Below, one piece after another: positions 12,189-24,631 of a DNA stretch of 24,664 nucleotides. The translations under genes and the position numbers were made by a program. This DNA is from Bacillota bacterium (GTDB lineage: Bacteria; Bacillota; Clostridia; UBA1381), in contig JAJPXA010000211.1 of the NCBI GenBank assembly GCA_021205715.1, forward strand, positions 1 to 24,664, given 5' to 3'. Positions within the stretch are counted from its first letter, which is position 1, and each line of letters begins with the position of its first letter. Under the pieces are notes generated by a model, which was not told the origin of the DNA, ran no database searches, and was given only the letters and a program-made list of their open reading frames with translations.

Positions 12189-13016
12189 TCATATAAAATC
12201 ACGTCTGTACTGCGACGGTGTTTGACCAACGTATTTTTTAAAGCGGTATATATAATTGCTGTCGTCGAGAAAGCCGCATTTTTCGGCAATTTCGGAAACG
12301 CTTCGGTCTGTCTGCCTGAGCATCGCCTTTGAAATATTGACGCGGCAGTTTATCAGATAGCGGTAAGGGGTAACTCCCGCGTATTTTTTGAACCGCCGTA
12401 TAAAATGATATTTTGACATATGCGCGGCTTCCGCCATATCGTCGACCGTTATTTGCGCGGCGCAGTTTTCCTCTATAAACTTAACTGCGGCATTCATTTT
12501 TTCAGCTGCGTCGGACTCCGTTTCCGCGCCGTTATGCGCGTTCAGGCGGCATAATATCGTGTGTATCGCAAGACCCGTTTCGTATTGGCGCTTTATGTCC
12601 GCGCCGATATTTAAGATTTTTTCAAGAAGATTTTGAAATTCCTCATCATCGTAAGGCGCAATTTCGCGGTTTAATACCGAGCCCGCCATAGCTTTTACAC
12701 CGCCGCCCTTTATATGCGCCCAATAAAAATCCCAAGAGCCGTTTGACGAATACTCGTGATATTCGGAGCAGTCGATTATCACCGCGTGAGCCTTTTTCAG
12801 GGCAAACTGCCTGTCCCTTGTTTTCACCGTGCCCTCGCCGCTTTGGGTGTAAAGCAAGAGGAAATCATCGCGTCCGTCACGGCGCGCGTAGTAATTTTCG
12901 TCCGCGAAAAACTCGCCCGCCTCGGTAAAATAAAATCCGCTCCTTACCGCGTTATCCGACAGTGCGGCGCTTATCCACCGCGATTTTTTTTGTATATCAA
13001 GCTCGCTTTCGTTCAT
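12189..13016 (-). CDS. AraC/XylS-family transcriptional regulator (275 aa)
   Basis: N-terminal cupin-like sensor (LLLYTQSGEG..FYWAHIKG); C-terminal double HTH (MSKYHFIRRFKK..G.TPY, IAEKCGF.D.NY..RFKK.VGQTP.QYR). ATG 13016 follows SD GGGAGG. Confidence 0.93.
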   Translation of the reverse strand: MNESELDIQKKSRWISAALSDNAVRSGFYFTEAGEFFADENYYARRDGRDDFLLLYTQSGEGTVKTRDRQFALKKAHAVIIDCSEYHEYSSNGSWDFYWAHIKGGGVKAMAGSVLNREIAPYDDEEFQNLLEKILNIGADIKRQYETGLAIHTILCRLNAHNGAETESDAAEKMNAAVKFIEENCAAQITVDDMAEAAHMSKYHFIRRFKKYAGVTPYRYLINCRVNISKAMLRQTDRSVSEIAEKCGFLDDSNYIYRFKKYVGQTPSQYRRDFI

Positions 13017-13050
13017 AATCCGCCTCCCGTTTTTTCGTAATACCGAAATT

Positions 13051-13079
13051 ATTTTACCACAGCTGTCCCTGACAATCAA
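13051..13079 (-). promoter_or_regulatory. Sigma-A promoter of araC-like gene
   Basis: TTGATT (13079-13074), 17 bp, TG-G-TAAAAT (13056-13051). Confidence 0.65.
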
Positions 13080-13087
13080 GCAAAAAG

Positions 13088-13151
13088 AGCAATAATTTTG
13101 TATTTTTAAGCAATTTTAACTAATGCATAATTGCGCGTTTGGTTATATACT
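13088..13151 (+). promoter_or_regulatory. Putative AraC-activated promoter of DUF5107-GH2 operon
   Basis: AGCAAT direct repeats at 13088 and 13109 (21-bp period); -10 TATACT at 13146-13151 with a poor -35 (ATGCAT). Confidence 0.55.
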
Positions 13152-13185
13152 GTATTTAACAAAATTTTCGGAAAGGATTTTCACT

Positions 13186-16100
13186 ATGAGCAAGGTTATT
13201 GTACGCGAAGAAATTGTAAACATTCCCACTTATGAGGCGGGAGAACCGTCGCCCATACCTATGTTTCTCGATAAGCGGGTGTATCAGGGAAGCTCGGGAC
13301 GGGTGTATCCGCATCCGGTGACGGACAAAATATCCGACGAGAAAACGGACAAGGACTATCAAGCAATTTTTCTTGAAAATGAATATTTGTCGGTTATGAT
13401 TTTGCCGGAGATAGGCGGAAAAATTCACCGCATATACGACAAGACAAACGGTTATGACGCGGTGTATCATAACGAGGTCATAAAGCCTGCCCTTGTGGGA
13501 CTCGCGGGCCCGTGGGTTTCGGGCGGAATAGAGTTTAACTGGCCGCAGCATCACCGCCCGTCGACATTTGACCCGGTGGAAAGCGCCATCGAGGAAAACG
13601 ATGACGGCTCCGTAACGGTTTGGTGCGGAGAAATCGAGAATATGTACCACACCAAGGGTATGACGGGCTTTACTCTGCGCCCGGGATGCGCGTATCTTGA
13701 GATAAAGGGGCAGATATACAACCCGACCGACCGTCCGCAGACGTTTTTGTGGTGGGCAAATCCGGCTGTCGCGGTAAACGAGAATACACAGTCAATTTTC
13801 CCGCCCGACGTTCACGCGGTAATGGATCACGGCAAGCGCGACGTTTCAAAATTCCCTATCGCCACCGGCACATATTACAAGGTCGACTACGGCGAGGGCG
13901 TGGATATTTCGCGCTATAAAAATATCCCCGTTCCGACATCGTATATGGCGTATCACAGCGATTACGATTTTGTCGGAAACTACGACTACGGCAAAAACGC
14001 AGGCATTCTGCACGTCGCCGACCACCGTATATCCCCCGGCAAAAAACAATGGACGTGGGGCTGCGGCGATTTCGGCAAGGCGTGGGACAGGAATTTAACG
14101 GACGAAAACGGGCCGTATATAGAGCTTATGACCGGAGTATTCACCGATAATCAGCCCGATTTCACGTTTATCGCGCCGTATGAGGAGAAAACCTTCACGC
14201 AGTATTTTATTCCGTATAAGGATGTCGGCGCGGTAAAGAACGCGACCCGCGATGTTATTATAAACCTTGAAACCGACGGCGATACCGCCGAAGCGTCGGT
14301 ATACGCCTCGCGCTTTATGGACGTTACAATAACGCTTTGCGGCGAGATAGAGGAATACATAAGTGAAAGCGTAACTCTTTCGCCGACGAACCCGTTCAAA
14401 AAAAGTGTGAAATTTACGGACGACAACGAGGGATTTCTGACCCTGTCCGTAAAGGACGAGGACGGCAATGTAATTGTCGAATACACGCCCGACGTGAGTG
14501 ATGAGATAATCGAAACCCCCGCGCCGGCGGAAGCAGCGGAAGCGCCGGAGGATATAGCGTCGCTTGAGGAGCTGTTTTTAACGGCAACACATCTCGAGCA
14601 ATACCGCCACGCGACCTACTCTCCCGAGGACTATTACCGCGAGGGACTTCGCCGCGATCCGACCGATATACGGCTTAACAACGGGTACGGCAAATATTTG
14701 TACAAAAACGCGCGGTTTGAGGCGGCAAAAGTGTGCTTTGAGGCGGCGATAAAAAAATCGACTTGGAAAAACCCGAATCCGTATGACACCGAGCCTTATT
14801 ACAATCTCGGTCTTGTCCTTAAAATTCTCGGCGATACCGATAAGGCTTACGACGCGTTTTACAAATCCGTATGGTCGTCTGCAATGCAGGACAAGGGATA
14901 TTATCAACTCGCCTGCATTTGCGCGTCGAAAAAGCAGTACGATAAGGCGCTTGATTTCGTGAGCCGCTCGCTATTAAAGGGCGCGCACAATATAAAGGCG
15001 CTGAATTTAAAAACATCACTTCTGCGCATTACCGGAAAACACGGCGAGGCGAAGGATTTGGCATATAAAACCGTGCTTATCGACCCGCTCGATTTCGGCG
15101 CGAGATACGAGCTTTACAGACTTACCGATGATTTTAAGGTTTTAAACGAGCTTACAACTTTAATGCGAAACGATGTTCAAAACTATATCGAGCTGTCTTT
15201 GAATTATAAAAACTTCGGCTTGTATGATGAGGCGGCAAAGGTGCTGGCGCTTATTTCCGAGCTTCCGAACCCTATGCTTCACTACTACATCGCCTATTAT
15301 TCAAACAGCGAAACGAATCTTGAAATAGCGGCGAACGGTGACGCGAGCTTGTGTTTCCCAAACAGGCTTGCCGAAATCGAGATTTTAGGCTATGCCATAG
15401 AGAAAAACCCGAGTGATTTCACCGCGCCCTATCTTTTGGGCAACCTCTATTACGACAAAGGCTGTGCTGAGCAGGCTGTTAAATATTGGGAAATGTCGCT
15501 TGCCATCGGCGAGGGCGGCATAAGCGCGTACTGTCACAGAAATCTCGCCGTTGCCTATTACAACAAGCTCTCCGACAAAGACAGGGCAAAAGCCGAAATG
15601 GAAAAGGCGTTTCGGCTCGCGCCCGACAACGCGCGGATTTTTTACGAGCTTGATATGCTTTACAAAAAGCTCAATGTAAGCGTTAAAAAGCGGCTTCGCG
15701 ATATGGCTGATAATTTTGAGCTTGTCGACCGGCGCGATGATATGTATGTCGAGTTTATGACCCTTTTAAATGACGAGCGCTATTTCGAGCGCGCGTACAA
15801 GGGAATGGAAATTCGCAAATTCCACCCGTGGGAAGGCGGCGAGGGCAAAATAACGCGCCAGTACAAACGCGCGAATATCGGTCTTGCGCTCGAACAACTT
15901 GAGAAAAACGATTACGAGGACGCGGCGAAATATCTTACAAACGCTCTCTCCTACCCCGAAAATCTCGGCGAGGGCAAGCTGATTACCGAAAACGACAACG
16001 ACGTGTATTTCTACCTCGGCGAGGTGTACAAAAACATCGACCTTATAAAGGCTAACGAATATTTTAAAAAGGCGGCGCGCGGCTCGGAGGACTTGTCGGA

Positions 16101-16464
16101 CGCGAAATATTACAACGACCGCCCGCCGGAGATGTACTTTTATCAAGCTATGGCGGAGCGCCGGCTCGGCAACGAGAAAAAGGCTATGTCAATGTTTAAC
16201 CGGCTTATCGATTACGGCGAACAACACATAAGCGATAAAACAAAAATCGACTATTTTGCCGTTTCACTCCCCGATTTCGATATATTCGACGCCGACCTTG
16301 ACGCGAAGAACAAGGCGCACTGCGCTCATATGGCGGCGTTGGGAAATTACGGGAAAGGCAACCGTGAAAAGGCGATGAAATACATAAACATAGGTCTTGG
16401 CTTCGACGCTTCGCACCAAGATTTGATACGTTTAAAATACGAGGTGGAAAATGAAAGTAACTGA
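13186..16464 (+). CDS. DUF5107-domain + TPR-repeat protein, E. coli YphG-like (1092 aa)
   Basis: N-terminal IPTYE..P.PMFLDKRVYQGSSGRVYP, LENEYL.VMILPEIGG, GPWVSGGIEFNWPQHHRP, FLWWANPAV, GPYIELMTG.F.DNQPDF; C-terminal TPR-like helical repeats. ATG 13186 follows AAAGGA. Confidence 0.88.
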   Translation: MSKVIVREEIVNIPTYEAGEPSPIPMFLDKRVYQGSSGRVYPHPVTDKISDEKTDKDYQAIFLENEYLSVMILPEIGGKIHRIYDKTNGYDAVYHNEVIKPALVGLAGPWVSGGIEFNWPQHHRPSTFDPVESAIEENDDGSVTVWCGEIENMYHTKGMTGFTLRPGCAYLEIKGQIYNPTDRPQTFLWWANPAVAVNENTQSIFPPDVHAVMDHGKRDVSKFPIATGTYYKVDYGEGVDISRYKNIPVPTSYMAYHSDYDFVGNYDYGKNAGILHVADHRISPGKKQWTWGCGDFGKAWDRNLTDENGPYIELMTGVFTDNQPDFTFIAPYEEKTFTQYFIPYKDVGAVKNATRDVIINLETDGDTAEASVYASRFMDVTITLCGEIEEYISESVTLSPTNPFKKSVKFTDDNEGFLTLSVKDEDGNVIVEYTPDVSDEIIETPAPAEAAEAPEDIASLEELFLTATHLEQYRHATYSPEDYYREGLRRDPTDIRLNNGYGKYLYKNARFEAAKVCFEAAIKKSTWKNPNPYDTEPYYNLGLVLKILGDTDKAYDAFYKSVWSSAMQDKGYYQLACICASKKQYDKALDFVSRSLLKGAHNIKALNLKTSLLRITGKHGEAKDLAYKTVLIDPLDFGARYELYRLTDDFKVLNELTTLMRNDVQNYIELSLNYKNFGLYDEAAKVLALISELPNPMLHYYIAYYSNSETNLEIAANGDASLCFPNRLAEIEILGYAIEKNPSDFTAPYLLGNLYYDKGCAEQAVKYWEMSLAIGEGGISAYCHRNLAVAYYNKLSDKDRAKAEMEKAFRLAPDNARIFYELDMLYKKLNVSVKKRLRDMADNFELVDRRDDMYVEFMTLLNDERYFERAYKGMEIRKFHPWEGGEGKITRQYKRANIGLALEQLEKNDYEDAAKYLTNALSYPENLGEGKLITENDNDVYFYLGEVYKNIDLIKANEYFKKAARGSEDLSDAKYYNDRPPEMYFYQAMAERRLGNEKKAMSMFNRLIDYGEQHISDKTKIDYFAVSLPDFDIFDADLDAKNKAHCAHMAALGNYGKGNREKAMKYINIGLGFDASHQDLIRLKYEVENESN

Positions 16465-19078
16465 TTTATCGGGCGAATGGAGATACGAAACCGACGAAAA
16501 TAATGTCGGAATCCGCGAAAAATTTTATCAAAGGGATTTGAAAAACGGCGGCTTTTCGCTTCCCGGCTCGACCTGCGATAATAAGATAGGAGAACGTTGT
16601 AAGGCGTTCTCCTATCTTTCGCGCGAGTCGGTGCGCTCGCTTGTTCCGAAGTACAATTATATTGGCGCGCTTTGGCTTGAACGCGAAATCGAAACGGAGG
16701 ATTTAACGGGCAAAAGTGTAAAGCTGTTTTTGGAGCGCGTTAATATCGCGTCGCGGCTTTGGATTGACGGCAAGAGCGTGGGACGCGAAATAATTGAGCT
16801 TTCCGCGCCGCATATTTACGACCTTTCAGGCGTACTGACCGCGGGACGTCACCGCATTACGCTCCGTATTGACAATTCAAATTTGCTTAACATCGACGGT
16901 ATGGCAAGCGGCTACAGTGCCGACACTCAATCGATATGGCTCGGAATTATAGGACGCATAGAGCTTTGGGAGGAGAATGTGTTTAATATTGCCTCTGTCC
17001 GTCTGTATCCGGACGTCAAATCGGTTTTTGCCGAGATTACCTTAGATTCCGACTGCAAAAAGCCCGATGACAGGCGGGCGGCAAAGCTTACATTGGATGT
17101 AACCGCGCCGAACGGCGAGCGCTTAAAGCCCGTAAAGCACAGCGCGGTGCTTTATAACCGCAGGCAGGTTGAGCGCGTCGAATACCCCATGGGCAAGAAC
17201 ATAGAATATTGGGACGAGTTCAATCCCGCGCTCTACACTATGAAGGTGACCTATGAATGCGGCGGCGTGACGGATGTTAAAAGCGAAATTTTCGGTATGC
17301 GCACCGTTGAGGTCAAGGGCAAGGAGTTTATATTAAACGGTCATCCGATTTCCTTGCGCGGCACTGTCGACTGCGCGATTTATCCCGATACCGGCTATCC
17401 GCCGACGGATTTGAATGAATGGCTTACGGTTATGCGCCGAGTTAAGGAATACGGCTTAAATCACATTCGCTTTCACGCGTGGTGTCCGCCGAATAACGCG
17501 TTTTTGGCTGCGGATATAACAGGTGTTTACGTGCTTGCGGAAATGCCCCTGTGGCTTAACGAGGACGTGTGCGCCCTGGACACGGGAAGCGACCCTATAC
17601 ACCGCGCGTATTATACCGCCGAAGCGCTCAACATTTCGCGCGCCTACGGCAATCACCCGTCGTTTATTATGTTCTCTAACGGCAACGAGCTTCTGGGCGA
17701 TTTTGAAATGCTTGAGGATATTACAACGCAGATAAAGGCGGTCGACGATAGGCGGTTATACACGCTGACGTCAAATTTTGACCACCCGCTCTCACCCTGC
17801 GAGGACTATTTGTGCGCGTTCGAGACATACGGTCACCGCGTGCGGCTTCAGGTGTTCCACGACGTGGTTTCGGAGCATACGAAAATCACATACGACGACG
17901 CCGTTGCCGACACTCCCGCGCCCGTTGTGTCGTTTGAGGTCGGTCAATACTGCGTTTATCCCGATGTCGACGGCGCGAATGATTACACGGGCAATCTCGT
18001 GCCGCTGAATTTTGACGTTATAAAGCGCTCTATGGTTGAAAAGGGCGTGTATCACAAGCTGAAAAAATACGTCCGCGCGTCCGGAAAATTCGCCGCACTT
18101 ATGTATAAGGAGGATATCGAGGCGGCGCTCAGAACGCGTAAAATGGGCGGCTTTGAACTGCTGTCCCTGACCGATTACACAGGTCAGGGCACCGCGACGA
18201 TAGGTCTTTTGGACGCGTTCGGAAAAAGCAAGGGCATTATATCACCCGACGAGTTCAGGCGTTTCTGCTCGCCGACAGTGCCGCTTTTTATGGCGAAGCG
18301 AATATTTAAAAACACCGAAAAGCTCAAAGCGGAATTTGACATATACAACTACAGTCCGACAAAAATTTTGCATCCGGAGTACAAATTCACGCTTTACGAC
18401 GGCACAAGCGTCGTATATGAAACCGTCACAAAGCGTCCGAAAATATCGATACCGCTTGATTTTATAACGAAGCCGTCGCAGCTTACGGCAACTCTTGAGG
18501 TCGGTATGTATAAAAATTCGTGGACAATCTTTGTCTACACCGGCGAAAAAGAAAAAATAAACGTGCCGATTTTGAAAAAGAAAAAGGATATTTTAAACAT
18601 TATCGAAAACGGCGGAAGGGCAGTTGTTCAAATGACGGCGGACAATTTGGCGGCGCCGATAGACGGTTTGTTTAAGCCTGTGTTTTGGTCGCCCGCGTAT
18701 TTTCCGTCAAAACGCGCCTGCGGTCTGATAATCGACAATGCGCACCCGCTGTTCGAGCGTTTCCCCACAGCGGACACGGCGGATTTTCAATGGAAGCATC
18801 CGATTGACAATTCCGTCGGCTGTGATATTTCGGCATTGCCCAAGGATTTCGAGCCGATAATCGAGCCGGTGCCGAATTTCTTCGACAACACGCCGCGCTC
18901 GCCATTATTTGAAGCGCGCGTAGGACGCGCCGACCTGCTTTTCAGCGGATTTGATTTATCCGCTAAGGATACCGCGTCCGCAGCGCTCACGTCGGCAATG
19001 GCAAAATATGTAAACAGTGGTAGCTTCACTCCCTCGCAGACGCTCGATGCGGCTGTGGTTATAGGGCTGTTTAAGTAA
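16451..19078 (+). CDS. GH2 glycoside hydrolase, cytoplasmic (875 aa)
   Basis: LSGEW, FGMRTV...FILNG..I.LRG, GLNHIRFHAWCPP, GNHPSF.M...GNEL (acid/base), FEVGQ (candidate nucleophile); SD GAGGTG; 14-bp overlap with upstream gene. Confidence 0.88.
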   Translation: MKVTDLSGEWRYETDENNVGIREKFYQRDLKNGGFSLPGSTCDNKIGERCKAFSYLSRESVRSLVPKYNYIGALWLEREIETEDLTGKSVKLFLERVNIASRLWIDGKSVGREIIELSAPHIYDLSGVLTAGRHRITLRIDNSNLLNIDGMASGYSADTQSIWLGIIGRIELWEENVFNIASVRLYPDVKSVFAEITLDSDCKKPDDRRAAKLTLDVTAPNGERLKPVKHSAVLYNRRQVERVEYPMGKNIEYWDEFNPALYTMKVTYECGGVTDVKSEIFGMRTVEVKGKEFILNGHPISLRGTVDCAIYPDTGYPPTDLNEWLTVMRRVKEYGLNHIRFHAWCPPNNAFLAADITGVYVLAEMPLWLNEDVCALDTGSDPIHRAYYTAEALNISRAYGNHPSFIMFSNGNELLGDFEMLEDITTQIKAVDDRRLYTLTSNFDHPLSPCEDYLCAFETYGHRVRLQVFHDVVSEHTKITYDDAVADTPAPVVSFEVGQYCVYPDVDGANDYTGNLVPLNFDVIKRSMVEKGVYHKLKKYVRASGKFAALMYKEDIEAALRTRKMGGFELLSLTDYTGQGTATIGLLDAFGKSKGIISPDEFRRFCSPTVPLFMAKRIFKNTEKLKAEFDIYNYSPTKILHPEYKFTLYDGTSVVYETVTKRPKISIPLDFITKPSQLTATLEVGMYKNSWTIFVYTGEKEKINVPILKKKKDILNIIENGGRAVVQMTADNLAAPIDGLFKPVFWSPAYFPSKRACGLIIDNAHPLFERFPTADTADFQWKHPIDNSVGCDISALPKDFEPIIEPVPNFFDNTPRSPLFEARVGRADLLFSGFDLSAKDTASAALTSAMAKYVNSGSFTPSQTLDAAVVIGLFK

Positions 19079-19159: not shown

Positions 19160-20068
19160 TTAATTCATCTCAACCTTGCCCACTATATCCGAAAGCGTGT
19201 CAATGCCGTATTTTTCGCAATACGCCTCGATGTCGCGCTTTACCTCGATAATCAAGTCGGGTTTTATAAACATACCCGTTCCGAGCGCCGTAAGCGACGC
19301 TCCGGCGAGCATAAATTCTATCACGTCCGCGCCGCTCATTATGCCGCCCATACCGATAATGGGTATATCCACCGCGTTATGCACCTGGTACACCATTCTC
19401 ACCGCCACAGGCTTTACCGCAGGGCCGGAAAGTCCGCCCATATTGTTCGCCAAAATCGGACGTCTTGTGTTAATGTCTATTTTCATTCCCAAAAGCGTGT
19501 TTATCAAGGACAGCGCGTCCGCGCCGCCGCGCTCGGCGGCGATAGCTATATCCGTAATCGATGTGACGTTCGGCGAGAGCTTTACGACGAGCGGCTTTTT
19601 TGAAACCGCCTTTACCTCGCGGGTTAACTCATAAACCGTGTTGGGGTCAGTTCCGAACGCCAAACCGCCGTGCTTTACGTTCGGGCAGGAAATATTCATC
19701 TCAATCATCGCCGCGTCGGTTTTTGATATAATCTCCGCCATTTCACAGTATTCCTCGATTGTGTTGCCAGACATATTTACTATCACGTTTGTGTCGTATT
19801 TCGCAAGCCGCGGCATAATCTCGTTCGAGAACACCTCGACCCCGGGATTTTGCAGTCCGACGCTGTTTAATATTCCGCTCGGCGTTTCCGCGATTCTCGG
19901 CGGCTTGTTGCCCTCACGCGGCTGTCTTGTTATGCCCTTTGAGCCGATACCGCCGTATTCCTCAAGCGCGGCGTATTCGCCGTATTCCTCGCCGAAGCCG
20001 AATGTTCCCGACGCGGTCACGATAGGATTTTTAAACTCCACACCGCAAAAGGTTGTCTTAAAATTCAT
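19160..20068 (-). CDS. pyrD: Dihydroorotate dehydrogenase B, catalytic subunit
   Basis: TASGTFG, GNKPPRIAET, NSVGLQNPG, NISCPNV (catalytic Cys), KLSPNV, INTLLG, GGLSGPAVKP; ATG overlaps pyrK stop (TGATG). Confidence 0.96.
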   Translation of the reverse strand: MNFKTTFCGVEFKNPIVTASGTFGFGEEYGEYAALEEYGGIGSKGITRQPREGNKPPRIAETPSGILNSVGLQNPGVEVFSNEIMPRLAKYDTNVIVNMSGNTIEEYCEMAEIISKTDAAMIEMNISCPNVKHGGLAFGTDPNTVYELTREVKAVSKKPLVVKLSPNVTSITDIAIAAERGGADALSLINTLLGMKIDINTRRPILANNMGGLSGPAVKPVAVRMVYQVHNAVDIPIIGMGGIMSGADVIEFMLAGASLTALGTGMFIKPDLIIEVKRDIEAYCEKYGIDTLSDIVGKVEMN

Positions 20069-20832
20069 CACAGCTTCACCACCTTTGAATTAAACACGGG
20101 GCCGTTTTTGCATACCCGCATATATTTGTCCGTGCCCTCGAATATCGTTTCGCACGAGCATACCAAGCACGCGCCTATGCCGCATCCCATACGCTGTTCA
20201 AGCGAAAGCTGGCACTCTATTCCCGCGCCTTCGGCGATTTGCTTTACCGCCTTCAGCATAGGTGTGGGGCCGCAGGAGAATATAACGTCGCATGGGTTGG
20301 ATTTTATATATTCCTCCATTGCCGATGCGATATATCCTCTGTAGCCGTAGCTTCCGTCGTCTGTGCCTACCTCGCAGGAGGCGGATACGGCTTTAAACTC
20401 GTCCTCCATAACAACTCTCGACTTGCCGCGGAAGCCCAAGAATACCTTTGCTTTTGCGTCAAGCCGCTTCGCAAGGTTCAAAAGCGGGAAAACGCCTATT
20501 CCGCCGCCGATTATAACCGGAGCGGTATACGCTTTATCAAGGTCAAATCCGTGACCCAAAGGCCCCAAAATGTCGATTTTATCTCCGACCTCGGCTTTGG
20601 CAAGCTCCGCCGTGCCCTCGCCCTTAACCTCAAATATAAATCTTACCGTATCGCCGTAAACATCGCAAACGCTTATCGGACGGCGCAGAAGCGTGCCGCC
20701 GCCGCAGGCGATATGCAAAAATTGTCCGCAATGTGTTTCGGACGCGATTTTCGGACTGCTTACCCGAAAGTCGAAAATCCCATCGGCTATTTCCGTCTTT
20801 GCGGTAAGAGTGCATAATTCGGTTTTTTTCAT
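20068..20832 (-). CDS. pyrK: Dihydroorotate dehydrogenase electron-transfer subunit
   Basis: LRRPIS, GPLGHGF, GGGIG, CGPTPML, LEQRMGCGIGACLVC...RVCKNGPVF 2Fe-2S motif. Confidence 0.96.
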   Translation of the reverse strand: MKKTELCTLTAKTEIADGIFDFRVSSPKIASETHCGQFLHIACGGGTLLRRPISVCDVYGDTVRFIFEVKGEGTAELAKAEVGDKIDILGPLGHGFDLDKAYTAPVIIGGGIGVFPLLNLAKRLDAKAKVFLGFRGKSRVVMEDEFKAVSASCEVGTDDGSYGYRGYIASAMEEYIKSNPCDVIFSCGPTPMLKAVKQIAEGAGIECQLSLEQRMGCGIGACLVCSCETIFEGTDKYMRVCKNGPVFNSKVVKL

Positions 20833-20864: not shown

Positions 20865-21779
20865 TCAGAGAACGCCGACAATATCCGCTTTCATTCTCAA
20901 AGCCTCGGCTCTTGCCGCCTCGGCATACTGCTCGTCCTTCCAATCGCCTTTTTTGTAGGCACACATAATGCCGCGCGACGAATTTACAATCGCGCCCAAT
21001 CCGTCCTCGTTAAAGCACGGCAGAACACCCTGCGCACCGCCGCCCTGCGCGCCGTAGCCGGGAACAAGGAAATATGATTTCGGCATAAGCTTTCTTAAAA
21101 CCGCCGCCTGCTCGGGATATGTAGCGCCGACCACCGCGCCGACCGCGCCGTAGCCGCTCTCGCCGATTGTACCCGCGTTCCATTCGTTCACACGTTCCGC
21201 GACCGTTTCAAATATGGCTCTGCCCCCCGCCTTTAAGTCCTGAAGCTCGCCCGAGGATGGATTTGAGGTCTTAACAAGCGTGAATATAGCCTTGTCATAC
21301 TTTTTGCAGTCCGCTACAAACGGCGCGACGCCGTCCGTTCCCAAATACGGGTTTACCGTGACGCTGTCGACGTCGCAGGGCGAAACCTCGTCCCCGTCAA
21401 TATCGACCTTGCCCAAATACGCCTTTGAATACGCCTCGGCGGTCGAGCCTATATCGTTGCGCTTTACGTCAAGAATCACATACAAGCCGCGCTCCTTGGC
21501 ATAGCTTATCGTTTTATGAAGCGCTCTCTCGCCCTCAAGTCCGTACATCTCGTAGAACGCGGACTGCGGCTTTACCGCCGGCACAATATCGTAAAGCGCA
21601 TCAATCAAACCCTTATTGAACATTATTATCGCCTCAGCCGCACCGCGCAGATTTTTGCCGTACTCATTAAACGCTTTTTCTTTTATATAACCGGGCACAT
21701 ACTCGAGCTTAGGGTCAAGTCCCGCCACCGACGGGTTGCCCTTTTCCTTTATTCTCTTAACCAACAAATCAACCGACAT
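20865..21779 (-). CDS. pyrF: Orotidine-5'-phosphate decarboxylase (long, subfamily-2 type)
   Basis: GLDP, KPQSAFYE, DVKRNDIGST, TVNPYLG, VKTSNPSS, VVGAT, LVPGYGAQG, NSSRGI. Confidence 0.95.
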   Translation of the reverse strand: MSVDLLVKRIKEKGNPSVAGLDPKLEYVPGYIKEKAFNEYGKNLRGAAEAIIMFNKGLIDALYDIVPAVKPQSAFYEMYGLEGERALHKTISYAKERGLYVILDVKRNDIGSTAEAYSKAYLGKVDIDGDEVSPCDVDSVTVNPYLGTDGVAPFVADCKKYDKAIFTLVKTSNPSSGELQDLKAGGRAIFETVAERVNEWNAGTIGESGYGAVGAVVGATYPEQAAVLRKLMPKSYFLVPGYGAQGGGAQGVLPCFNEDGLGAIVNSSRGIMCAYKKGDWKDEQYAEAARAEALRMKADIVGVL

Positions 21780-23072
21780 TTACATTTCCTCCAAATTTCC
21801 TTTATTTACAACAATTTTTCCGCCCACAATAACATATTCGGGCTTGCCCTTTACCTTAAATCCGTCAAAGGGTGTGTTGTGTCCCTTTGATCTAAACTCA
21901 TCCGCGCGTATCGTGTGTTCCTTTTCAAGGTCGAGAACCGCTATATCCGCGTCCGCGCCGACACCGAGCGTTCCCTTATCTATGCCGAGTATTTTCGCGG
22001 GATTTAACGCTGTGAGCTTTACAAAATCCGACATTGAAACGCCGCCGCGTCCGACCAAATAATCGAGCGTTACGGGAATTGACGTTTCAAGCGACGACAT
22101 ACCGCTCGCGGCGGCGGCAAATTCACAACGCTTTTCATCGGCGTGATACGGCATATGGCTCGACGCCACCGCGTCTATCGTGCCGTCCGCAAGTCCCGCT
22201 TTTATCGCCTCAACATCGCTTTTAGCGCGGAGCGGCGGATTTAATTTCGCGTTCGTGTCAAAGCCGTCAACCGCATCCTCTGTAAGCGCGAAATACTGCG
22301 GCGCGGTATCACAGGTTACCTTTATGCCGTCCGCTTTCGCGCGGCGCACAATTTCCACAGTTCCCGCTGTGCTTATATGCGTCAGATGAATTTTGCATCC
22401 GAGCGCTTTCGCGATAAGTATGTTTCTCGCCGCGTGTATTTCCTCGGCGGCGGCGTTTATGCCGCGCAAACCCAGCCTTGCCGACACTGTTCCCTCGTTC
22501 ATGTATCCGCCGTCGGAGAAATCCTTGTCCTCGCAATGGACTATAACCGGCATATCGAACATTGACGAATATTGCAAAGCCTTTCGGAGAAATGACGGAC
22601 TTTCCACACTTTTTATGCCCTCAGACAGAGCGACAGCGCCGTTTTCCTTTAGGTCGCCGACCTCGGTAAGCTCCTTGCCGCAAAGCCCTTTCGAGAGTGC
22701 CGCGATAGGATATACATTCGCGTATCCGCGCTCCTTGGCGACGCTTATTATAAATCTCACGACCGCCGCACTGTCGCATACGGGCGATGTGCCGGGCATA
22801 GCCGCGACGGACGTTATACCGCCCGCGGCAGCCGCCTTTGTTCCCGATGCTATGTCCTCGCGGTATTCAAGTCCCGGCTCGCAAAGCGCCGCGTTCATAT
22901 CCACCGCGCCCGGAACGACGTACATCCCGTCCGCGTTTATAACGCTCTCGCAGACCTCGTCTATATTTTCCGCGACCGCCGCGATTTTGCCGTCCCGAAT
23001 TAAAATATCGGCGGTTTTATCGACATTGTTTGACGGGTCGACAACATGACCGCCTTTAATTAAAATCTTCAT
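21780..23072 (-). CDS. pyrC: Dihydroorotase-like protein lacking catalytic residues (probable PyrC' pseudoenzyme, 430 aa)
   Basis: Full type-I DHOase scaffold (IKGGHVVDP, AAAAGGIT, HCED, HIST, KLNPPLR, NPAK, DADI, S..HNTPF.G), but DMHVHLRE reads DMNAALCE and ATDHAPH reads ASSHMPY. Confidence 0.9.
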   Translation of the reverse strand: MKILIKGGHVVDPSNNVDKTADILIRDGKIAAVAENIDEVCESVINADGMYVVPGAVDMNAALCEPGLEYREDIASGTKAAAAGGITSVAAMPGTSPVCDSAAVVRFIISVAKERGYANVYPIAALSKGLCGKELTEVGDLKENGAVALSEGIKSVESPSFLRKALQYSSMFDMPVIVHCEDKDFSDGGYMNEGTVSARLGLRGINAAAEEIHAARNILIAKALGCKIHLTHISTAGTVEIVRRAKADGIKVTCDTAPQYFALTEDAVDGFDTNAKLNPPLRAKSDVEAIKAGLADGTIDAVASSHMPYHADEKRCEFAAAASGMSSLETSIPVTLDYLVGRGGVSMSDFVKLTALNPAKILGIDKGTLGVGADADIAVLDLEKEHTIRADEFRSKGHNTPFDGFKVKGKPEYVIVGGKIVVNKGNLEEM

Positions 23073-23098: not shown

Positions 23099-24022
23099 TT
23101 AAAATCCTCCGCGCGAGAGAAGATACATAACCGCCATTCTCACCGCAACGCCGGACGTTACCTGCTCGTTTATAACGCTCTGCGCGCCGTCTATAACTGC
23201 CGACGACAGCTCCACTCCCCTGTTCACAGGGCCCGGGTGCATCAAAAGCGCGTTCGGCTTCGCAAGTTTCAGCCGTCTTTCGTCTATGCCGAAATACTTG
23301 TGATATTCCCTGACGCTCGGGAAAAGTCCGCTCGCCTGACGCTCAAGCTGGATTCGAAGTCCCATAACAACGTCCGCACCCTTTACAGCCTCGTCAACGT
23401 CGGTGTAAACTTCGACGCCCATATCCTCGATATGAAGTGGCATAAGCGTTGACGGCCCCGCGACCGCAACACTCGCGCCCATCGTCTTTAAGCCGTAAAT
23501 ATTCGAACGCACAACGCGGCTGTGGTATACATCGCCTACGATTGCCACGCGCAGACCGTTGAAATTTTCAAAACTCCCGATATGCTCGTACATCGTGAGC
23601 ATATCCAAAAGCGCCTGCGTCGGATGCTCATTCATACCGTCGCCCGCGTTTATGACCGACGCGTTTATCAACGGCGCGATAACGCGCGGCGCGCCGCTCA
23701 TACTGTGGCGCATTATCAGAATATCCGTACCCATAGCGTTAATCGTTTCGGCGGTGTCGATAAGCGTTTCGCCCTTTTGCACCGACGAGCCGGACGCGGT
23801 AATATTCGCCGCGCTCGCGCCCATATACTTCGACGCAAGCTCGAATGACATTCTGGTTCTTGTGCTGTTTTCGTAAAACAGCGTTACCACGGTTTTGCCC
23901 TGCAAATGCGGCGTTTTTTTGTTCGCCTGCTCCACGATAATTTTCATCGTTTTCGCCGTGTCCAAAATGTTTTCCAGTTTTTCTCTGCTCAGTCCTCTAA
24001 GCCCCAGCAAATCCTCTTTCAT
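23099..24022 (-). CDS. pyrB: Aspartate carbamoyltransferase catalytic subunit (307 aa)
   Basis: FYENSTRTR, KGETL.DT, NAGDG.NEHPTQALLD, HSRV, RIQLER, HPGPVNRG intact; ATG 24022 is 7 nt after SD GGAGG. Confidence 0.97.
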   Translation of the reverse strand: MKEDLLGLRGLSREKLENILDTAKTMKIIVEQANKKTPHLQGKTVVTLFYENSTRTRMSFELASKYMGASAANITASGSSVQKGETLIDTAETINAMGTDILIMRHSMSGAPRVIAPLINASVINAGDGMNEHPTQALLDMLTMYEHIGSFENFNGLRVAIVGDVYHSRVVRSNIYGLKTMGASVAVAGPSTLMPLHIEDMGVEVYTDVDEAVKGADVVMGLRIQLERQASGLFPSVREYHKYFGIDERRLKLAKPNALLMHPGPVNRGVELSSAVIDGAQSVINEQVTSGVAVRMAVMYLLSRGGF

Positions 24023-24024
24023 CG

Positions 24025-24576
24025 TCAAACCTCCCTGTCGTGCAAGGTCACCGCGCCGATTTCACCGCCGGACTTTACCTCAACATTTATATATTCGTTC
24101 TCGGACGTGGGCACGTTTCGTCCCACATAGTCCGCCTGTATCGGAAGCTCGCGGTTTCCTCGGTCTATCAAGACCGCAAGCTCGATTTTATCCGGACGCC
24201 CCATATCGAAAAGCTCGTCAATCGCCGCTCTTATCGTGCGTCCCGAAAAGAGAACGTCGTCAACAAGTATTATGTTCTTATTTTCAAGCTGAAAGCCTAT
24301 GTCGTTGCCCATCACAACCGGATGCTGATTGAGCTTCGTCAAATCATCCCTGTAAAACGTTATATCGAGGCTTCCGAGCGGAATATCAGCGCCTTCCGTG
24401 TCCTTGATACAGCGCTTGACCGCCTTTGCCAAATCCACACCCTTTTTCTGTATTCCTATAAGAACCAAATTGCCGGCGCCCTTGTTGCGCTCCGTTATCT
24501 CATACGCGATTCGTCTTACAACTCGGTTTGCCGTTTCCTCGTTCATTAAAATTTTCTTAACCTTACCGATAGGCAT
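24025..24576 (-). CDS. pyrR: PyrR-family uracil phosphoribosyltransferase/regulator, divergent in RNA-binding residues (183 aa)
   Basis: ERNKG, DITFYRDD, PRPP motif ILVDDVLFSGRT, GRP, DRGNRELPIQADYVG; ATG 24576 after AGGGAG. Confidence 0.93.
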   Translation of the reverse strand: MPIGKVKKILMNEETANRVVRRIAYEITERNKGAGNLVLIGIQKKGVDLAKAVKRCIKDTEGADIPLGSLDITFYRDDLTKLNQHPVVMGNDIGFQLENKNIILVDDVLFSGRTIRAAIDELFDMGRPDKIELAVLIDRGNRELPIQADYVGRNVPTSENEYINVEVKSGGEIGAVTLHDREV

Positions 24577-24631
24577 TATATCAACTCCCTGCGTCAATGT
24601 AATTTGTGTAATTTTTCCTCTGCCGCTATTT

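Follow-up and report, generated by a model that had tools for sequence, protein, structure and literature searches.

A dihydroorotase homologue stripped of its active site in a gut Clostridia pyr operon: a candidate non-enzymatic partner of aspartate carbamoyltransferase

Does the pyr operon of this uncultured gut Clostridia lineage still encode a dihydroorotase beside its aspartate carbamoyltransferase (ATCase) and, if not, for what role has the gene been kept? The question is raised by pyrC' (P0001), located at 21780..23072 on the minus strand of a 24,664-nucleotide stretch of DNA (contig JAJPXA010000211.1, positions 1 to 24,664; hereafter the window) from a Bacillota bacterium of the Clostridia lineage UBA1381. 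The assembly (GCA_021205715.1, G000) is a metagenome-assembled genome (MAG) of 1.55 Mb in 261 contigs and is 70% complete. The gene is a single uninterrupted open reading frame (ORF) of 430 amino acids, with no stops and no frameshifts, and encodes a homologue of type-I dihydroorotases (DHOases) that is matched by TIGR00857 at 381 bits (cut-off 279), as well as by PF01979 and PF12890. Since the TIGR00857 match is above its cut-off, pipelines based on hidden Markov models would name the product dihydroorotase, as had been anticipated in an earlier reading of the window made from the letters alone (the sequence-only reading). At the same time, PyrC' falls below the cut-off of every NCBIfam dihydroorotase equivalog model, for example NF006845 (440 versus 728). 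The sequence-only reading had described a full-length frame without frameshift whose stop abuts the pyrF start codon, and proposed that the product is a pseudoenzyme acting as a structural ATCase subunit; the ORF listing and the junction sequence agree with the former, and the latter is weighed below.

To place the active-site residues, PyrC' was aligned with HMMER to the enzymes of B. anthracis (3MPG, 4YIW) and Aquifex (3D6N) and to 25 active orthologues, with DxHxHLRxPG, MPNT, (F/V/I)(S/T)DDG, HCE(D/E), HxxH(V/I)S and xTDHAPH as reference motifs. PyrC' aligns end to end with both 3MPG (E = 2e-97) and 3D6N (E = 5e-93), and seven of the ten active-site residues are replaced: H60N, H62A, R64C, N94G, D152G, D305S and H309Y. 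The former DxHxHLRE motif now reads DMNAALCE (22878..22901, minus strand, as are all features of pyrC'), with the two alpha-metal histidines (H60N, H62A) and the substrate arginine (R64C) gone; MPNT has become MPGT (22788..22799), exchanging the substrate-binding Asn94 for Gly; xSDDG has become LSEGI (22614..22628), in which the bridging, alpha-site Asp152 (Aquifex Asp153) is Gly; and xTDHAPH has become ASSHMPY (22146..22166), with the catalytic, metal-binding Asp305 replaced by Ser and His309 by Tyr. In the sister protein P0002, introduced below, the corresponding segments read DMNVSLCE, MPYS, LSDGA and ASSHNPC. Only three of the ten residues are retained, namely the beta-site histidines His179, within HCED (22527..22538), and His232, within HLTHIS (22371..22388), together with Asn278 of NPPLR. 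The four altered motifs, and with them the loss of the zinc histidines, substrate arginine, bridging aspartate, catalytic aspartate and substrate histidine, had all been recognised in the sequence-only reading, and the losses were upheld by the alignment to the B. anthracis and Aquifex enzymes that it had proposed. Its position for ASSHMPY (22146-22166) was exact, while that for DMNAALCE (22881-22901) was three nucleotides short; and it had counted HCED and HLTH as the sole survivors, to which Asn278 has to be added.

In Aquifex DHOase the zinc is coordinated by His61, His63 and Asp153, and Asp305 comes next in distance (PMC3880350). By alignment, then, all four alpha-metal ligands of PyrC' are gone (H60N, H62A, D152G and D305S), as are three substrate residues (R64C, N94G and H309Y). 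Because the alpha-site ligands are all replaced, the known dihydroorotase mechanism is unavailable to PyrC', and judged by its residues the protein does not qualify as an active type-I dihydroorotase (EC 3.5.2.3). The changes are also concentrated at the active site: 38 of the 187 positions that are at least 92% conserved in active orthologues are altered in PyrC' and P0002 alike, with seven of the ten active-site residues among them (Fisher one-sided p = 0.0007), indicating a loss targeted to the active site beyond chance.

How widely is this loss shared? With the exception of the sister protein P0002, the stripped active site was absent from about 220 surveyed operon-linked orthologues. Across 40 related genomes, drawn from the genus, the family and the order, every motif is intact in the orthologue that occupies the pyrR-pyrB-pyrC-pyrF synteny; the active copies of the same genus are 58-60% identical to PyrC', and the loci of the same genus and order (L006-L030), which share pyrR-pyrB-pyrC-pyrF-pyrK synteny, span 48-60%. 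The metal ligands are likewise kept in 77 of 77 additional pyrB-linked PyrC genes from named Clostridia MAGs, a set whose sources include goat rumen and rabbit and whose labels include Hominilimicola, Candidatus Ornithomonoglobus and Oscillospiraceae. Of the best 119 database homologues, P0002 (73% identity, Logan run ERR13998902) alone turned out to be stripped in the same way, and a search for further members of the stripped clade found, among the best 120 of 7,169 database matches, none but P0002 above 60% identity. A search of sequencing runs returned three contig runs at a share of 0.06-0.13 and no RNA run.

P0002 (428 amino acids, compared with 430) sits in an identical operon, locus L035. 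The neighbouring genes on both ERR13998902 contigs match the MAG at 79-91% identity, which assigns both contigs to a species that is sister to the organism of the window. PyrC' and P0002 have N60, C64, G152 and S305 in common and have diverged elsewhere in the former active site (A/S62, G/Y94, I/A153, M/N307 and Y/C309), a pattern expected from a single loss followed by drift. In the tree PyrC' and P0002 pair up (100/100), with the active PyrC proteins of the same genus as their sister group (100/99); the stem of the pair measures 0.69 substitutions per site, versus 0.069 for the sister stem. These relationships indicate that catalysis was lost in a single event, in the common ancestor of the MAG and its sister lineage, that the loss, restricted to these two members, is no general trait of Clostridia, and that it is evolutionarily young, since same-genus relatives are still intact. 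The sequence-only reading had suggested that close relatives retaining HxH would point to strain-specific decay. All same-genus orthologues do literally retain it, and strain-specific decay was nevertheless rejected, because the 73%-identical sister shares the loss and the gene was conserved afterwards.

Two active-site variants surfaced in the same surveys. About 20 pyrB-linked PyrC proteins (L085-L095, L099-L101, L105, L110, L111, L113, L114 and L117), from MAGs labelled Saccharofermentans, Mageeibacillus and Ruminococcaceae, carry N278H in NPPLR, and 13 proteins of the 77-gene survey read ATDNAPH for ATDHAPH. With all metal ligands kept, these look like an active-site variant clade and not like pseudoenzymes.

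If PyrC' is inactive, which protein performs the dihydroorotase step? A profile search of the MAG contigs found a second TIGR00857 match (G000:C239:1804-3015), a protein of 424 amino acids (P0121; hereafter PyrC2) in which every dihydroorotase motif is intact and which passes the NF006839 equivalog cut-off (587 versus 576). Its gene has no pyr neighbours and is convergent to a gene for a DacA-like carboxypeptidase. The closest database relative of PyrC2 is P0122, which is 79% identical, comes from run ERR13998902 and is again encoded beside a Peptidase_S11 gene. The tree places PyrC2 and P0122 (100/100) amid proteins at 65-70% identity, apart from the family's own dihydroorotases, and no PyrC2-type gene was found in same-genus relatives, where nothing but the operon copies matched, with 45-47% identity to PyrC2. 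Since its nearest relatives lie outside the order, horizontal acquisition is suggested; PyrC2 was probably gained by horizontal transfer, once, in the common ancestor of the MAG and its sister.

As to the rest of the pathway, pyrB (23099..24028 in the window) is the only ATCase-grade match in the MAG, no pyrI was found in the contigs of this 70%-complete assembly, and a pyrE match above cut-off and free of stops lies elsewhere in the MAG. A carB match (G000:C232:1160-4303, L037; 1471 bits) is also above cut-off and has one TAG inside the matched region. Leaving this TAG aside, each de novo step that was looked for (carA was not among them) has a gene, and by its motifs the dihydroorotase step falls to PyrC2. 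A further candidate for this step was rejected: an amidohydrolase homologue of 487 amino acids with an intact HxH (G000:C253:5867-7216; L003:1450-2913, plus strand) scores below every cut-off, the dihydroorotase ones included, and its best-scoring families are D-hydantoinase/dihydropyrimidinase or allantoinase. The gene is flanked by one for a carbon-nitrogen hydrolase resembling N-carbamoyl-amidases and by a P-II gene, and the locus may be a small catabolic module for cyclic amides or pyrimidines. Separately, genome G020 of the same family has both an intact operon-type PyrC (C29:15305-16591) and a PyrC2-type protein (C243:22530-23786, 58% identical to PyrC2), so that the two types coexist redundantly there and the operon copy has kept its active site.

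We next consider how PyrC' has evolved since the loss. Nei-Gojobori estimates between the window and L035 were dN 0.200-0.203 and dS 1.58-1.62 for PyrC', compared with dN 0.056 and dS 1.89-1.94 for PyrB (91% identical between the two), dN 0.079 and dS about 1.74 for PyrF, dN 0.070 and dS 1.49 for PyrD, and dN 0.147 and dS 1.71 for PyrK; for the active-type PyrC2, compared between the MAG and the sister, they were dN 0.148 and dS 1.56. Non-synonymous change in PyrC' after the loss was thus about eight-fold slower than synonymous change, giving an omega (window versus P0002) of at most about 0.13, an approximate figure and an upper bound only, dS being saturated (about 1.5 or more) in every pair. 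The dN of PyrC' is about 35% above that of PyrC2 in the same genome pair. On a fixed topology under LG+G4, the ratio of PyrC to PyrB branch lengths is about 1.4 for active same-genus proteins, 4.6 for the PyrC' stem and 3.7 for the two PyrC' tips. Taken together, these rates argue that PyrC' has been under purifying selection after its catalytic loss, and they exclude neutral pseudogene decay. A survey of related genomes for the same losses at dN/dS below 1 had been suggested by the sequence-only reading; the ratio between the stripped copies is as suggested, and the losses recur in P0002 alone.

The fold appears to have been preserved. An AlphaFold2 monomer predicted from the orthologue alignment has a mean predicted local distance difference test (pLDDT) score of 88 and a predicted template-modelling (pTM) score of 0.90, and it superposes on 4YIW and 3D6N with a template-modelling (TM) score of 0.93 each, at 38% identity to the latter. 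The full type-I dihydroorotase, or amidohydrolase, scaffold is therefore predicted to be intact; together with the concentration of changes at the active site (p = 0.0007), the pLDDT of 88 and TM of 0.93 bear out the description of PyrC' as a targeted active-site loss on a preserved scaffold. The only poorly defined segments of the model are 185-191, 272-274 and 317-321, the first of which starts shortly past Cys180, the counterpart of the Aquifex loop-A residue Cys181. In free Aquifex DHOase, loops A, B and C are disordered and become ordered upon ATCase binding (PMC3880350).

Modelled as a complex, PyrB and PyrC' reached a score of 0.78 in three runs, versus 0.27 for the best control; 58 of 80 solved complexes attain the mark applied to this score, as do 2 of 110 mismatched pairs. 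The confident contacts fall on 19 residues of PyrC' (193-195, 197-203, 270-271, 312 and 315-320), in three stretches: residues 193-203 (22464..22496), past loop A and identical in P0002; residues 270-271 (22260..22265), in loop B; and residues 312-320 (22113..22139), in loop C. These predicted contacts lie in the same regions as the low-confidence segments of the monomer, and the low pLDDT at 317-321 in particular would be expected of a loop that becomes ordered upon binding (PMC3880350). All 19 contact residues are identical between PyrC' and P0002, compared with 73% identity over the whole protein (segment-permutation p = 0.006, conservation-matched p = 0.002), and the same 19 positions have only average conservation in the active orthologues (0.79 versus 0.77). 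In the model, then, the tightest constraint on the pseudoenzyme falls on the loops predicted to contact ATCase.

We consider it probable, at roughly 0.6, that PyrC' is a maintained pseudoenzyme of the PyrC' type, serving as a non-enzymatic partner of ATCase. The sequence of events would have been as follows. Acquisition of PyrC2 would have rendered catalysis by the operon copy redundant, and this redundancy would have let its active site go; the operon copy would have been kept for a second, non-catalytic role, the binding of PyrB through loops A, B and C, by which it may build or stabilise an assembly of the ATCase-DHOase type resembling those of Aquifex and Pseudomonas.

Several observations count against this interpretation. 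The high score of the complex model may reflect memory of the solved Aquifex complex 3D6N, so that it shows likeness and not binding. At the predicted interface PyrB carries no change specific to the lineage, and with 309 amino acids it has an ordinary length and can be aligned from end to end with its orthologues from the active lineages. In complexes of the Aquifex type the DHOase depends on the ATCase and not vice versa, so that a dependence of PyrB on PyrC' is not implied. Relative to PyrB, PyrC' evolves about 2.6-3.3 times faster than active PyrC, pointing to relaxed constraint, and the saturation of dS noted above limits what omega can add. On the side of PyrC2, the membership of C239 in a 70%-complete MAG rests on binning, composition and co-occurrence, and the attribution of its relatives to Lachnospiraceae is supported by just two "Lachnospiraceae bacterium" labels among the proteins at 65-70% identity.

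The strongest competitor, which we regard as unlikely, is that PyrC' is indeed a maintained pseudoenzyme with some other role; it might, for example, sense a ligand or act as a regulator, hold other pyr enzymes together as a scaffold, or form a structural homo-oligomer. Purifying selection indicates that PyrC' has a function and not which one, PyrB carries no signal of co-evolution at the predicted interface, and other proteins of the superfamily are non-catalytic and serve unrelated functions, among them the collapsin response mediator proteins (CRMPs) that were seen among the fold matches. The loss of R64, N94 and H309, on the other hand, makes the sensing of carbamoyl-aspartate or dihydroorotate unlikely, pyrC' has stayed between pyrB and pyrF in both lineages, and it is the complex with PyrB that passes the controls, with the predicted contact loops being the most strictly conserved part of the protein between the two copies.

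Could PyrC' instead be a functionless relic, its frame held open because stops or frameshifts would be polar on pyrF-pyrK-pyrD, and with too little time elapsed for decay? The architecture of the operon would fit such a constraint, since the pyrC' TAA (21782-21780) abuts the pyrF ATG at 21779 and the pyrF Shine-Dalgarno sequence GGAGGA sits within the final codons of pyrC'; the accelerated rate relative to active orthologues and the youth of the event, with same-genus relatives still active, would fit as well. Polarity, however, preserves a frame and not amino acids, yet dN is 0.20 versus a dS of at least 1.6, and this dN exceeds that of the active PyrC2 by just some 35%. Furthermore, the junction is not conserved, the sister locus L035 having an 18-nucleotide spacer between pyrC' and pyrF, and the two copies have kept their length (430 versus 428 amino acids) and a fold that is predicted with high confidence. 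We therefore hold a relic to be improbable.

Improbable to a very slightly greater degree is that PyrC' is still an enzyme, either a metal-independent or beta-site-only dihydroorotase or a catalyst of another amidohydrolase reaction. An intact TIM-barrel and the retention of His179, His232 and Asn278 in both copies would be compatible with this. Metal-free Aquifex DHOase is inactive, however, and the Aquifex H180A/H232A double mutant, from which the beta site has been removed, retains normal kinetics (PMC3880350), so the retained His179 and His232 of PyrC' are not the essential part of the site. With the bridging aspartate and the alpha ligands gone, two histidines alone make up no known amidohydrolase metal site, and the two copies carry different residues where the site was replaced, as in a relaxed former site and not a newly tuned one.

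Least probable of all is that contig C239 is a binning artefact and that the lineage, devoid of an active dihydroorotase, is losing de novo pyrimidine synthesis: the incompleteness of the MAG (70%, 261 contigs) and the resemblance of PyrC2 to Lachnospiraceae-labelled proteins leave some room for it, but the GC content and tetranucleotide composition of C239 are typical of the bin, orthologues of the DacA-like gene and of PyrC2 (81% and 79% identity) are linked on one contig of ERR13998902, an independent sample holding the sister pyr operon, at a divergence (79-81%) matching that of the sister's other genes, pyrB, pyrF, pyrK and pyrD are intact with dN of 0.056-0.147 versus the sister, and elsewhere in the MAG pyrE is above cut-off without stops and carB above cut-off with its one flagged internal TAG.

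If PyrC' is a non-enzymatic ATCase partner, it has counterparts elsewhere. In Pseudomonas (P. aeruginosa, P. putida and P. fluorescens; class A2 ATCase) the gene order is pyrR-pyrB-pyrC', with the inactive chain directly after pyrB; as in our MAG, an inactive homologue is encoded beside pyrB and a separate active pyrC lies elsewhere. The origins are nonetheless independent: the protein described here nests within active Clostridial PyrC, being 58-60% identical to same-genus enzymes, and it is very young, being limited to two lineages. Common descent with Pseudomonas PyrC' is contradicted by this nesting (100/99), as judged in a tree that contained no Pseudomonas sequence. According to Patel et al. 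(2020, PMC7053772), who describe the same system as Schurr et al. (1995), the P. aeruginosa pseudo-dihydroorotase (pDHO) is inactive yet required for ATCase activity, and the ATCase itself has terminal extensions and is monomeric without pDHO; PyrB of the window, in contrast, has the ordinary length of 309 amino acids.

The Aquifex aeolicus DHOase-ATCase dodecamer (DAC, 3D6N; class A1) is among the closest solved structures, tied by B. anthracis 4YIW, and the low-confidence loops of the PyrC' monomer model and its predicted PyrB contacts fall where the Aquifex protein has loops A, B and C; the difference is that the Aquifex DHOase is active in the complex, whereas PyrC' is without the entire alpha-metal site. 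The pseudo-DHOase domain of fungal URA2/CAD-like proteins (Chaetomium, yeast) has likewise lost zinc and substrate residues and is a structural element beside ATCase (PMC4581275, PMC7053772), but it is a domain fused into a eukaryotic multifunctional polypeptide and is of independent origin. The active PyrC proteins of the same genus and order (L006-L030) are true orthologues of PyrC' that keep all catalytic motifs and evolve about three times more slowly relative to PyrB. By comparison, PyrC' has all the sequence-level hallmarks of pseudo-dihydroorotase partners of ATCase, and its assembly with PyrB is predicted. The sequence-only reading knew of no such case in Clostridia, and in keeping with this our search of the literature available to us found no such protein in Firmicutes. 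The kind of pseudoenzyme is thus already known from Pseudomonas and fungi; new, as far as the phylogeny indicates, is its independent and recent origin in this lineage.

The remaining genes of the operon are unexceptional. From the ORF list and profile matches, the order on the minus strand is pyrR-pyrB-pyrC'-pyrF-pyrK-pyrD. The first gene, pyrR (24025..24597), encodes the PyrR regulator/uracil phosphoribosyltransferase (NCBIfam NF003549, 223 bits, cut-off 138). It is followed by pyrB, for the ATCase catalytic chain (NF002032, 396 bits; TIGR00670, 316 bits; each exceeds its cut-off), whose stop at 23099 is adjacent to the pyrC' ATG at 23072 on the same strand. Downstream of pyrC' lie pyrF (20865..21779), for a type-2 orotidine 5'-monophosphate decarboxylase of 304 amino acids (TIGR02127, 268 bits), pyrK (20068..20832), for the electron-transfer subunit of dihydroorotate dehydrogenase (PF10418, NF000798/NF000799 family), and pyrD (19160..20071), for the dihydroorotate dehydrogenase 1B catalytic subunit (NF005574, 420 bits, cut-off 269). 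The start codon of pyrR is uncertain, as the listed ORF begins with TTG and has 190 amino acids, compared with 183 in the L035 orthologue, and since the contig ends 67 nucleotides upstream of pyrR, a leader or attenuator, if any, would lie mostly beyond the window. On the opposite strand, 12189-19078 is unrelated to the pyr operon: it holds a 1113-amino-acid ORF (13123-16464) and, overlapping it, a gene of glycoside hydrolase family 2 (GH2; 16451-19078) with weak matches to PF02836, PF00703 and PF02837.

For the organisms concerned, an immediate consequence is that the dihydroorotase step would be assigned to the wrong gene whenever the metabolism of these gut MAGs is reconstructed, the pathway enzyme being encoded elsewhere. 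The locus also offers a clean and datable case of the passage from enzyme to pseudoenzyme, with active orthologues in the same genus, a sister that shares the loss and a replacement enzyme that is probably of horizontal origin; pseudoenzymes with active relatives this close are few. Should PyrC' bind PyrB, class-A ATCase-DHOase assemblies would extend to Clostridia, and the PyrC' solution of Pseudomonas and fungi would be one that evolves repeatedly. A bolder proposal, which we put forward tentatively as plausible though short of probable, is that we are looking at a pseudoenzyme soon after its birth: a horizontally acquired pyrC freed the operon copy from catalysis, dependence of PyrB kept it in place, and class A complexes are ancestral in the order. 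If PyrB does depend on the operon copy, ATCase in this gut Clostridial order would have Aquifex-like class A complexes as its ancestral and so far unrecognised form, in contrast to Bacillus subtilis, whose ATCase is reported to be a free catalytic trimer, and the active orthologues of the same genus would, together with PyrC', form a before-and-after series leading from an enzyme to a pure scaffold.

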